From the IMG/VR virus record IMGVR_UViG_3300049988_000286, positions 288,001 through 352,000 of that record: a DNA stretch of 64,000 nt. One strand, given 5' to 3'. Source of the DNA: a virus. Its lineage: Duplodnaviria; Caudoviricetes. Shown one piece after another: positions 11,135 to 50,760 of the stretch. Numbering within the stretch: position 1 is the stretch's first letter; each line of letters begins with the position of its first letter. Made by a program: the position numbers and the translations under genes. Under the pieces are notes generated by a model that worked only from the letters and a program-made list of their open reading frames with translations, did not search any database and was not told where the DNA came from.

Positions 11135-11701
11135 ATGAACGACAATGCAAATCAGGCGATCGATCAGAGCCTCGACATCGCGTCGCGTATCGTCATCGCC
11201 TACGTGGGCAACTCGCACAACCACCTCAATACCGATGCGCTCAACACGCTGATCACTGCCACCTACTCGACTGTGCAGGGTCTCGCCGGTACGGCCGCGC
11301 CCGTCGCCGCCACTGCCGAGGTCGAGGAGGAGATGCGTCCTGCGGTCTCGGTCCGCAAGTCGATCGCCGATCCCGAGTTCATCATCTGTCTCGTCGATGG
11401 CCAGAAGGTCAAGGTGCTCAAGCGCTACATTCGCACGCGCTTCGGCCTGACGCCCGAGCAGTATCGCGAGAAGTTCAACCTCCCCGCCGACTACCCGATG
11501 GTCGCCCGCGCCTATTCGGATCGTCGTCGCGAACTCGCCAAGACGATCGGCCTCGGCACCAAGGGCCGTGTTCGCCAGTCGGCCGTCGAGGCGCTCGCCG
11601 ATATGACCGGCGAGAGCGCGGATACGATCAAGGCAGAGATGGACGGCAAGAAGCCGGGCCGCAAGCCGCGCGCCAAGAAGGCCGAGATGGCGGACGCCTA
11701 A
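11135..11701 (+). CDS. mucR: MucR/Ros family transcriptional regulator
   Basis: PAVSVRKSI...IICLVDG..VKVLKRYI...GLTPEQYREKFNLPADYPMVARAYS.RRRELAK.IGLG. Confidence 0.9.
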   Translation: MNDNANQAIDQSLDIASRIVIAYVGNSHNHLNTDALNTLITATYSTVQGLAGTAAPVAATAEVEEEMRPAVSVRKSIADPEFIICLVDGQKVKVLKRYIRTRFGLTPEQYREKFNLPADYPMVARAYSDRRRELAKTIGLGTKGRVRQSAVEALADMTGESADTIKAEMDGKKPGRKPRAKKAEMADA

Positions 11702-48357: not shown

Positions 48358-49692
48358 ATGCGAACTGTGGAGAGCGTCATGTCAGTCACTAATGTAGCGG
48401 TCAGTGATATCAAGCAGGACACCTTCCGGGTCAAGGGCATCAATGTGCCCGATCCGGAGAAGGCACGGATGTCGCTCACGGACAGGGCGCGGCTCGTCAC
48501 GATTGAGCGGCGCATCCTCGCTGGCGCGCGCAAAGTCGATGAGGTGCTCGCCTCCGGTGATCGCGAGTTTCTAGAATCCTTCGATGCGTCGGTGGAAGCC
48601 GAGTTCGAGACCAAGCGTCCCGTTCGTCCCACCCCTACGCTCGCCGATGATCTCCTCTTTGGCAAGACGCGAGGCCTCCTCAATCCGCGAGCCGAGGACC
48701 GCGCCAAGACGCTTCTGCGCTCCGCGAGGCGTTTCGTCCTCACCGACAGCGCGGCGCGTCGAATCGCGGAGGCAATCCGCCAATATCCCGACATGCTGGT
48801 TGAGCAAGGATGGTTCGCGCGAACCCCTTTCGAGACGTGTTGGATCGAGCTTCCCGCACGACCCTTCCACAGCACGATCGCGCCGGGCAGCGACACCCCC
48901 GACAGCGACGATCGCATCGGTTATCTCTTCCACGGCAGCCGCGTTTATGTCGGCGCTTCGAATGAGTCCGATCGTGATCCCGTGTTCTCCCCGCTCATCT
49001 ATCACCTCCATCACCCCAATAGTCTCGCGGACCAACTTTCGCTAGCGGAAGACCTGTCGGTGTCGCGGGGTCAGTTGGACAATTTCTATTGGGGCCAAAC
49101 AATGGCGCAAGGGTTGTCGATGCCGACCCTTCGCGGTCTGCGAGGGCAGCATGGTTTCGAAGTGGCTGTTGAAGAGGCAAATCGTTCCAAGCTGCGCGGC
49201 ATGAACCTCTTGGGTCTATCCGCTGGCGAAATCCGGAACATCGTCGGTCTCCTCCTCATGATCAACCAGCCCTCCGGGGTGGTGCGGATCGAGGACATCG
49301 AGCATCGCCGCACGCTGACCTCACGGGGTAACCGGCTCTTGATGGGGCACAGCGTCGTGACCCTCAACCTCGATCGCCGCTCCAAGGTGTCGCGCCTTTT
49401 GCGCAAGCCGGTTGGTTCGCACGCGTCGCCGCGCTGGCACGCCGTCATGGATCACTGGTGCCATGATCGAGTAGCGCGCACATCCGGCGACCATACCCAT
49501 GACTGGGATACCGACGATGCCGAAGGGCGCTTGGTGGCACGCTGCCGTGTTTGTGGTGGCCGTCGCTGGAGGCGGCGGATGAAGAATGGTCGTGGCGATC
49601 GTGCGCGTGGTATCGTATCACAGGATCGCATCGTGGCCACCGACAATGACCGCACGATGATCAATGAAGCGAGAAGGGATACTCATGATTGA
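48358..49692 (+). CDS. hypothetical protein
   Basis: 444-aa ORF; TTGACC-N17-TAGATG promoter upstream; SPRWH..DHW motif. Confidence 0.7.
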   Translation: MRTVESVMSVTNVAVSDIKQDTFRVKGINVPDPEKARMSLTDRARLVTIERRILAGARKVDEVLASGDREFLESFDASVEAEFETKRPVRPTPTLADDLLFGKTRGLLNPRAEDRAKTLLRSARRFVLTDSAARRIAEAIRQYPDMLVEQGWFARTPFETCWIELPARPFHSTIAPGSDTPDSDDRIGYLFHGSRVYVGASNESDRDPVFSPLIYHLHHPNSLADQLSLAEDLSVSRGQLDNFYWGQTMAQGLSMPTLRGLRGQHGFEVAVEEANRSKLRGMNLLGLSAGEIRNIVGLLLMINQPSGVVRIEDIEHRRTLTSRGNRLLMGHSVVTLNLDRRSKVSRLLRKPVGSHASPRWHAVMDHWCHDRVARTSGDHTHDWDTDDAEGRLVARCRVCGGRRWRRRMKNGRGDRARGIVSQDRIVATDNDRTMINEARRDTHD

Positions 49693-50005
49693 ACTTTGGT
49701 CGGATGCCCAAATTGCGCAACTCCTCACCCCGGAGCGCCTCGATGCCATCTGGGCACAATCGCACCGCCGCCACCCCTACCCCGTTGACCATGAAGGTGC
49801 GGAAATCAAGTTCATCGCCTATGGCGAGGTCACCGACGATCTCACACAGATGATCGTTGAGGCGCGCGGTCCCGATCTTCGCGCCACCCTCTTCGCCGCC
49901 ATCGACTTCGACAGTAGCGGTAACGTCGGCGCGATTAGGCAGGTTCGCCGTGTCACCGAGATGAAGCCGGTGACCTCGTGGATGCCCGTGCGGGTGACGC
50001 GATGA
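49685..50005 (+). CDS. hypothetical protein
   Basis: AAGGG RBS; overlap coupling. Confidence 0.6.
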   Translation: MIELWSDAQIAQLLTPERLDAIWAQSHRRHPYPVDHEGAEIKFIAYGEVTDDLTQMIVEARGPDLRATLFAAIDFDSSGNVGAIRQVRRVTEMKPVTSWMPVRVTR

Positions 50006-50211
50006 TCCGCCATATTCGCTGGACGCCGCTGCGCAAGAGCGAGGCGATCGAGGAGATCAAATCCGGGAAGATGAACCGCACCGCCTTCATGACCGCGAAT
50101 AACATCTCCGAGGATGAGATGCGTGAGTGGGAGCGAGATGCCGAGAAGGGGCCAAAGGCCCATAGCAGGAAGGCGCGGTATCAACGGGCTCGACGCGAGG
50201 GATTACTTTAA
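50002..50211 (+). CDS. SciP/DUF1153-like small HTH protein
   Basis: RWTPLRKSEAIEEIKSG...NISEDEMREWER matches the RW..RK.E...V.GG...L..EEF..W pattern of SciP. Confidence 0.55.
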   Translation: MIRHIRWTPLRKSEAIEEIKSGKMNRTAFMTANNISEDEMREWERDAEKGPKAHSRKARYQRARREGLL

Positions 50212-50216
50212 TAATA

Positions 50217-50246
50217 TTGACCCGACTCGAAATGCGATTCTAATCT
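50217..50246 (+). promoter_or_regulatory. sigma70-type promoter for a non-coding region
   Basis: TTGACC at 50217; TCTAAT/TAATCT 16-18 nt downstream. Confidence 0.6.
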
Positions 50247-50254
50247 AAGGAACA

Positions 50255-50760
50255 TTATCCGAGGGCTTCGGCCTGACTAGATACGCGTTCGATGGACTTT
50301 GCAGGTGGCTCTTGTCGCCGTGTTCCGGGCTGATGCTTGGCTGGGTAGCCGACCGGGAAGCTGTTGCCGGTTCCACCTCGGGTGGGCACAAGAGACAGCA
50401 ATAGAGGAGGGCGATGTCGTGCTGACAACCCTCCGTATGCGGTTGGTCAAGTATTGGCGGCTGATCGTATAAGCTTCTTCGGATAACCGTTGCAGACCTC
50501 GTGTCTGGGAGAGCGCACCAGTGCCGGGTCTCGGGCGACCACCGGCCAGCTATAAACGCGAATGGTGCGAGCCAGTCCTTTCGATCTCAAAGGAAAGATT
50601 TCTCCCCCTCCATCTCATCACTGGGGTGGAGGGGGATAGAGTTCTATCTCAACTCAAGGAAAGTGTAGAAGGGGAATCAAAAATCGATTACCGCCCGTTC
50701 AAGCAAGGCTTGATAAGGGCAGGGAATCTCGTGGATGAGCGCAGCGAGTCCACGACTATG
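50255..50760 (+). ncRNA. candidate large structured ncRNA of unknown class
   Basis: About 500 nt without a credible ORF; many complementary segments (50255-63/50478-86, 50274-80/50443-49, 50309-15/50388-94, 50406-11/50429-34, 50514-20/50563-69, 50603-12/50627-36); cUUCGg tetraloop. Confidence 0.6.

Follow-up and report, generated by a model that had tools for sequence, protein, structure and literature searches.

Does a virus of Alphaproteobacteria carry its own form of SciP, the small host protein that binds the regulator CtrA? The question is raised by a 69-residue open reading frame (ORF) in a 64,000-nucleotide stretch of DNA (the window; bases 288001-352000) of the IMG/VR record IMGVR_UViG_3300049988_000286, a phage genome of 499,572 bp that CheckV rates as complete and that has 57% G+C, 41 tRNA genes and one transfer-messenger RNA (tmRNA) gene. 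An earlier reading, made from the letters of the window alone (the sequence-only reading), had likened the ORF product to SciP by eye and proposed that the phage uses it, together with a MucR homolog encoded in the same window, to take over the CtrA circuit of its host. We consider it almost certain that this ORF (50002-50211) is a genuine gene, and an accessory one, in this 500-kb alphaproteobacterial phage, and that it encodes a three-helix helix-turn-helix (HTH) protein of a distinct, short clade of the DUF1153 family, the family of SciP.

The 69-residue protein belongs to the DUF1153 family

The ORF opens with an ATG at 50002, which overlaps the TGA of an upstream 113-residue ORF (ATGA), and closes with a TAA at 50209-50211. 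Its G+C content is 75% at third and 46% at second codon positions (GC3 and GC2), and under a codon-usage score trained on long ORFs of this phage its own frame is the best at +22 bits, with the other five frames between -49 and +12. The sequence-only reading had thus placed the ORF correctly, and by this score the ORF looks coding. A GTG at 49978 would yield a 77-residue form, and the frame open 5' of the ATG adds just 8 residues, or 21 up to the nearest stop; we preferred the 69-residue form because the homologs start at the same residue (MIQHTRW, MFTHSRW, MKHLRW). The protein carries the motif R6-W7-x3-R11-K12-x-E14 ... I19 ... G22 ... I35-S36 ... E39 ... W43. This is the RW..RK pattern that had caught the eye in the sequence-only reading, except that the spacer written there as two residues is three residues long, as it is in SciP. 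An HTH core (residues 9-47) is followed by a C-terminal tail (residues 49-69) whose basic character had also been noted, and whose net charge, counted from the sequence, is +7. The AlphaFold2 (AF2) model (predicted local distance difference test score, pLDDT, 86) has helices at residues 9-20, 26-33, 37-47, 51-54 and 56-65, predicting a three-helix HTH and then a further helical stretch.

Searches of profile libraries placed the protein in DUF1153 (PF06627), with a Pfam score of 25.2 bits (E = 1.8e-5; gathering cut-off 23.5 bits) over residues 6-62, equivalent to positions 29-85 of the 87-position profile. The sole match in NCBIfam was the SciP model NF051866 (E = 6.6e-5, 23 bits), and a second Pfam match, to HTH_Tnp_1 (PF01527), reached 14.7 bits, short of its cut-off of 24.1. 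Among 1.84 billion representatives, searched exhaustively with phmmer, 16 proteins besides the query passed E = 1e-3; one is a spurious repeat protein and the others are 56-146 residues long. Each of the 17 sequences in the family alignment matches DUF1153, and 11 of them match HTH_Tnp_1 as well. When a profile of the short family was searched against the PDB, it retrieved just the two solved DUF1153 structures, 2JRT from Rhodobacter sphaeroides (E = 7.6e-14) and 2OA4 (E = 6.2e-11), both aligned via the RW..RK..W core, with the next match at E = 0.11. By hhalign, the short family aligned with 33 cellular SciP orthologs, drawn from a sample of 151 genomes of Alphaproteobacteria, at 98.8% probability (E = 1.3e-16) over 47 columns with 19% identity. 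These profile comparisons are the check that the sequence-only reading had proposed for its likeness by eye, and they set that likeness at the level of the DUF1153 family. Taken together, the Pfam, NCBIfam, PDB-profile and hhalign evidence makes the homology of the 69-residue protein to the SciP family secure at the level of sequence.

Structure gave a less specific answer. The nearest three structure clusters in the ESM-Atlas are DUF1153/SciP clusters, with TM scores of 0.74-0.75, followed by transposase HTH clusters at 0.58-0.66, and a fold search of the PDB ranked 2JRT first (Z = 4.5), level with the HTH domains of KorB, LsrR, CENP-B and transposases (Z = 3.9-4.2). With a predicted model as query, fold comparison with the PDB alone cannot discriminate DUF1153 from other HTH domains. 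The sequence-only reading had itself named a transposase HTH as the structural match that would speak against it; what ranks first is a DUF1153 structure, tied with generic HTH domains. The same results bear on the idea that the gene is a remnant or domesticated part of a mobile element, its HTH taken from the accessory protein of an IS3/IS66-type transposase and without a regulatory role in infection. Although HTH_Tnp_1 is the second-best Pfam match and the Atlas neighbours past the top three are transposase clusters, we regard this origin as very improbable: the HTH_Tnp_1 score lies under its cut-off and about 10 bits below that of DUF1153, no transposase or other mobile-element gene adjoins, the frame is unbroken and its codon usage good, and the clade described below is conserved in several phages.

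Word-index homolog searches with the 69-residue protein and with a second query, P0013, found nothing beyond the queries themselves, a scan of IMG/VR with the single 69-residue protein gave no match, and PHROGs holds no family for it. An IMG/VR scan with an eight-sequence alignment had a sole match, a 157-residue protein of record IMGVR_UViG_3300033074_001026, which shares just an ELREWERD-like stretch and was rejected as a relative. That protein is encoded just upstream of a gene that by eye resembles a terminase large subunit, and it is probably a small-terminase HTH; the example illustrates how easily an ELREWERD-type motif gives false positives. Short DUF1153 clusters are already present in the ESM-Atlas, one of them 60% viral. 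Two variants of the architecture were also seen: a 146-residue protein (P0010) in which the DUF1153 core is duplicated in tandem, and, in an alphaproteobacterial genome (L045; G053:C23), a DUF1153 core joined to a C-terminal region whose likeness to PilZ was judged by eye.

Arm-less relatives of SciP in phages

A tree of the HTH core groups the 69-residue protein with eight other short proteins in a clade (support 96/87) that stands apart from the SciP cluster; the tree was built on 51 retained columns and resolves no other forks. Four of the nine members have phage-type neighbours (examples in Table 1), and the remaining members lie on contigs too short for their context to be judged. The clade proteins start where the HTH core of SciP starts and so are without its N-terminal arm. 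Their helix 3 is more acidic than that of SciP (mean net charge -4.4 versus -2.2), and their tail is more basic (+5.1 versus +2.3).

A cellular SciP used as tblastn query against 50,697 GenBank phage records found one cultured phage with a Sphingomonadales host, Erythrobacter phage XM05, an independent carrier of an arm-less SciP homolog. Across the DUF1153-family queries tried, only two of these records gave any match; tblastn with the family proteins P0001, P0008 and P0005 gave none, nor did blastn with the 8-kb neighbourhood of the DUF1153 gene. The XM05 protein, gp97, resembles the 69-residue protein in being phage-encoded, arm-less and of similar length, in starting at profile position 29 and in lying in a run of small unknown genes. 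It differs in standing nearer to cellular SciP, with 42% identity over a wider reading-frame match, and in keeping the GLRVTRTQTYR end; to the 69-residue protein it is just 23% identical. It was left out of the HTH-core tree. Because the nine-member clade and gp97 are both arm-less, the latter with a SciP-like C-terminus, we conclude from their sequences that phages carry arm-less SciP relatives that have diverged to two different degrees.

A search of the literature on DUF1153 and phage-encoded SciP found no description of phage-borne SciP relatives. Host CtrA is known to regulate some alphaproteobacterial phages; in the paper that reports this, SciP sites gave no sign of being clustered in phage genomes, and no phage sciP gene is described (PMC9437464). 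The same paper cites GcrA homologs in phiCbK-like phages and CcrM-like methylases in Sinorhizobium phages. There, too, a regulator of the host cell cycle or CtrA circuit has a counterpart encoded by a phage, but those counterparts are recognisable homologs of host genes, whereas the 69-residue protein is a remote and truncated relative. What appears to be new here, as known from sequence, is a phage-borne, arm-less branch of the SciP/DUF1153 family.

A possible action on CtrA

In Caulobacter and related bacteria the cell cycle is under the control of CtrA, whose reach across the Alphaproteobacteria more broadly extends to motility, surface polysaccharide and lifestyle switching. Such traits determine whether adsorption by phages is possible. 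The host of this phage is, on the evidence of two of its genes, an alphaproteobacterium, because the tmRNA is of the alpha type, permuted and with the ARAGORN-predicted tag VNDNDIRMAIAA, and because the closest relatives of the phage MucR (49% identity) come from metagenome-assembled genomes (MAGs) of Sphingomonas and Kiloniella. The alphaproteobacterial setting supposed by the sequence-only reading is thereby borne out; this is the class in which CtrA, SciP and MucR occur. SciP binds CtrA and blocks recruitment of RNA polymerase, and/or binds beside CtrA half-sites, and a ctrA(T170A) background is resistant to SciP (PMC4083442). In Sphingomonas melonis, CtrA governs motility, exopolysaccharide (EPS) and cyclic di-GMP (c-di-GMP) (PMC8921679), and mutations in the CtrA pathway lead to phage resistance in a Roseobacter (PMC13392355), so that a phage could gain by touching CtrA.

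The best single mechanism that we can propose, and only tentatively, is that during infection the 69-residue protein acts as a stripped-down SciP. The face with R6 and R11 would contact host CtrA bound at promoters, the basic tail would help to hold the protein on DNA, and the contact would alter CtrA-activated transcription; in Sphingomonas-type hosts the affected regulon would comprise motility, EPS and c-di-GMP genes, and these genes mould the cell surface presented to phages. We infer the contact with CtrA, the direction of its effect and the benefit to the phage. We favour this mechanism because of the family homology, the kept arginines, the alphaproteobacterial host, the recurrence of the arm-less form in phages and the accessory slot of the gene. 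SciP proteins are the only characterised members of DUF1153, and theirs is the sole activity known in the family. Like SciP of Caulobacter crescentus and other Alphaproteobacteria (PF06627, NF051866), with which it shares the HTH core family, the 69-residue protein is small and has a basic C-terminus, and its host class uses SciP.

At the level of single residues, R6, R11, K12, G22, E39, W43 and G50 are invariant in all 33 SciP orthologs; the first six are also invariant in 9 of 9 phage-clade members, and G50 is found in 8 of 9, with one gap. R6 and R11 align with SciP R35 and R40, K12 with K41, and S36 with T65, in a SciP numbering that we derived from the fit of T24, R35, R40 and T65 to one alignment offset. 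R35 and R40 are given as critical for CtrA binding in a preprint that cites Gora 2010 for the point (bioRxiv 10.1101/335265), and T65 is a hypomorph site (PMC4083442).

Several results weigh against a SciP-like action. Over the core, the 69-residue protein is only about 19% identical to SciP. It scores 23 bits against the SciP equivalog model NF051866, whose cut-off is 100 bits and which gave a cellular ortholog 147.6 bits as a control, and 18.8 bits against a hidden Markov model of the SciP orthologs. Those orthologs themselves score 90-145 bits to Pfam DUF1153 on near-zero tree branches and are nearly invariant over about 90 residues, so that almost all of the SciP surface seems to be under constraint, and the greater part of it is replaced in the 69-residue protein. 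The N-terminal arm of SciP (VIGPDGxPLTxxDLPP) is absent, the protein beginning at profile position 29, and the GLRxTRxQxYR end of SciP is not kept: KGPKAHSRKARYQRARREGLL stands in its place, retaining only the G and the basic character. Given the score of 23 against 100 bits, the missing arm and the altered C-terminus, the 69-residue protein is, by sequence, not a SciP ortholog. The arginines are also less telling than they look, since R6 and R11 are also kept in the majority of the divergent cellular paralogs; being invariant across most of the DUF1153 family, they need not signal CtrA binding and are weak evidence for it. DUF1153 itself was matched in E. coli in one control, so that scores near its cut-off are not SciP-specific, and one short DUF1153-like Atlas cluster, a lead only, is dominated by Bacteroidota. 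Bacteroidota are not known to have CtrA.

Wiring of the phage into the CtrA circuit was likewise not found. The 499,572-bp genome contains no CtrA box (TTAA-N7-TTAA), where simulations give 0-2, and the DUF1153 gene accordingly has no box upstream that would mark a CtrA-dependent promoter. The phage genome also contains no Fumeaux-type SciP motif, (G/A)TTAACCAT(A/G), and no GcrA. The family profile had no match in five related phage records, one of them of 561 kb, while the positive control on the phage's own genome scored 95 bits. TTAA is itself rare in this phage, with 304 copies in 500 kb against roughly 1,000 expected from base composition by a rough estimate.

The missing arm could also point to the opposite effect, that of an anti-SciP decoy, which would fill the SciP site on CtrA, or the SciP sites on DNA, without repressing, and would keep CtrA-activated genes on. 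T24 lies in the arm, and T24I is a hypomorph of SciP (PMC4083442); the phage protein keeps the counterparts of R35 and R40 but lacks the arm in which this change weakens SciP, and the arm-less architecture recurs in XM05. The divergence that counts against a SciP-like action counts equally here, however, and the role of the arm in repression is itself only presumed. We consider a decoy improbable.

Extended to the whole group, the proposal reads that the arm-less SciP mimics, the clade together with XM05 gp97, bind CtrA directly in phages of Sphingomonadales and other Alphaproteobacteria and reset its regulon in infection. This broader claim seems to us rather unlikely. If it is true, the mimics would shut off or lock on flagellum, pilus, EPS and c-di-GMP genes, and would be the first phage-encoded protein inhibitors of CtrA as well as a natural minimal CtrA-binding module. 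Present evidence for a CtrA link of the 69-residue protein is indirect. XM05 is in culture, which makes the idea of CtrA binding directly testable. Should the arm-less proteins bind CtrA, they would reveal a way in which phages manipulate it and would mark out the smallest part of SciP needed for this binding; should they not, a new phage branch of DUF1153 has still been mapped, with a warning against calling every DUF1153 match "SciP".

The gene's surroundings and the phage MucR

The features discussed here are listed in Table 1.

Table 1. Features of the phage genome and of related records. Plain coordinates are positions in the window; others carry the record or locus to which they refer.
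Feature	Position	Strand	Basis or remark
DUF1153 (SciP-family) HTH gene, 69 aa, arm-less	50002..50211	+	ORF translation, codon score, Pfam DUF1153
444-aa backbone gene heading the same-strand run	48358..49692	+	18 homologs, synteny
113-aa ORF, no match in libraries	49664..50005	+	may start at 49685; codon score +45.7 in frame
Gene-free gap, 545 nt, taken as 3' boundary of the gene run	50217..50760	+	no coding ORF chosen; folding z-score -2.59
MucR/Ros homolog, not linked to the DUF1153 gene	11135..11701	+	PF05443 129 bits
XM05 gp97, 64 aa, annotated "hypothetical protein"	PV416404.1 79914-80108 (L067:4031-4225)		DUF1153 65 bits over profile 29-87; SciP model 63.6 bits
Clade member P0008			between major-capsid and portal/terminase genes
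Clade member P0006			near Mu-F-like head gene
Clade member P0009			adjoins T5orf172-type gene
157-aa protein, rejected as relative	L006:2026-2499		sole match of the eight-sequence-alignment scan
tmRNA, permuted	G000:C1:15534-15873 (L056:535-874)		Rfam alpha_tmRNA RF01849, 69.7 bits
Stand-alone 95-aa winged helix	G000:C1:270852-271139 (L051:1450-1737)		Trans_reg_C 25.4 bits, just below cut-off
tRNA with anticodon CUA	G000:C1:102238-102314		ARAGORN label Pyl; outside window
tRNA with anticodon CUA	G000:C1:106351-106425		ARAGORN label Pyl; outside window

The DUF1153 gene stands in a run headed by a 444-residue gene with 18 homologs at 42-58% identity, on contigs of up to 509 kb. Three syntenic loci (L064-L066) share the order of a 510-residue gene, an opposite-strand exonuclease gene, the 444-residue gene, a gap, a 277-residue gene and more, with not every backbone gene present in each locus. 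The slot 3' of the 444-residue gene holds unrelated small ORFs in each of the three, and in none of these megaphage loci does it hold the DUF1153 gene or a homolog of the 113-residue ORF. The 113- and 69-residue genes are thus a pair inserted at a slot where the otherwise conserved backbone is hypervariable, and since the same slot of related megaphages holds unrelated small genes, we class the DUF1153 gene as accessory. Slots of this kind are often the location of host-directed accessory genes. The sequence-only reading had cast the gene as part of a takeover of the CtrA circuit; its absence from the same slot in related megaphages makes it an optional add-on with no conserved programme behind it.

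Between the 444-residue gene and the DUF1153 gene, the 113-residue ORF has no match in Pfam, PHROGs or NCBIfam, and its entry in the ESM-Atlas begins at residue 8. The 444-residue protein has an Atlas language-model feature score of 0.94-0.95 to AcrVA2-like clusters, a lead that no sequence match in Pfam or the PDB confirms. The gap that follows the DUF1153 gene folds better than shuffled sequence. In the seven loci examined, the gene of the DUF1153 family lies each time directly 3' of a different ORF, with a 4-nucleotide overlap in most; the ORFs that precede the homologs bear no relation to one another, and no conserved partner gene was found.

This layout bears on the broadest of the alternatives, a small DNA-binding regulator of the ordinary kind that has nothing to do with CtrA; its HTH and basic tail would attach to phage DNA, or to the promoter of the cassette that encodes it, and tune transcription. 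The core is a generic three-helix HTH, with 2JRT tied with KorB, LsrR, CENP-B and transposase domains in the fold search and with the weak second match to HTH_Tnp_1 recurring across the family alignment, and such a regulator would fit a gene that follows a different, unrelated ORF in every locus seen and that in this phage is the last of its run, before the gene-free gap. Yet helix 3, which normally reads DNA, is strongly acidic in the clade, unusual for base-specific recognition, and in the PDB the family profile finds no HTH family but DUF1153. As a class, an ordinary regulator that binds DNA or controls its own cassette is plausible while short of probable; we hold it about as likely as a SciP-like action, yet it is less specific.

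Aca proteins are small HTH autorepressors that close anti-CRISPR operons, and an Aca-like autorepressor, closing a cassette with the unrelated upstream ORF as its payload, would be a special case of such a regulator. Here too the gene for a small HTH protein stands immediately 3' of small, unrelated ORFs, in a part of the phage genome that varies, and the 444-residue gene upstream has its AcrVA2-like lead. The likeness is one of gene layout, and other points tell against it: the DUF1153 gene is not conserved with the 444-residue gene in related phages, it is not regularly last in its run (L052 and L053 have further same-strand genes 3'), the upstream genes have no anti-defence assignment, and four-base overlaps are common in such dense gene runs.

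The second half of the proposed takeover concerned MucR. A search of the genome for a wider CtrA-circuit kit found by profile one MucR, the homolog that the sequence-only reading had rightly called clear, with a score far above the PF05443 cut-off of 25.4 bits. Its gene lies 39 kb from the DUF1153 gene in a separate transcription unit. The finger of the phage protein reads C-x2-D...Y...F in place of the zinc ligands C-x2-C...H-x3/4-H, with both histidines replaced, whereas the MucR of the Sphingomonas MAG (49% identical) reads C-x2-D...H...H. Even among cellular MucRs, the closest ones have C-x2-D or Y-x2-D at the first ligand pair. The phage MucR also has a 40-residue C-terminal extension that ends in a lysine/arginine-rich stretch.

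MucR silences AT-richer foreign DNA in the manner of H-NS. By analogy, such silencing would account for the presence of MucR in a phage no less well than a cell-cycle function does, and a role of the phage MucR in DNA silencing is more likely than one in the cell cycle. The idea of a double mimicry of SciP and MucR is therefore only partly supported: both genes are present, but MucR lies far away and has lost its zinc histidines, the SciP relative is not an ortholog, and CtrA boxes are missing.

A further candidate for the CtrA circuit, a stand-alone 95-residue winged helix of the OmpR/PhoB type without a receiver domain, was set aside: its best NCBIfam matches are PhoB, RpaB and OmpR, not CtrA, and it is a generic OmpR-type protein rather than a CtrA-specific one. 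Outside the window, the two tRNA genes with anticodon CUA could be amber suppressors, hinting at read-through or recoding of TAG in part of the phage.

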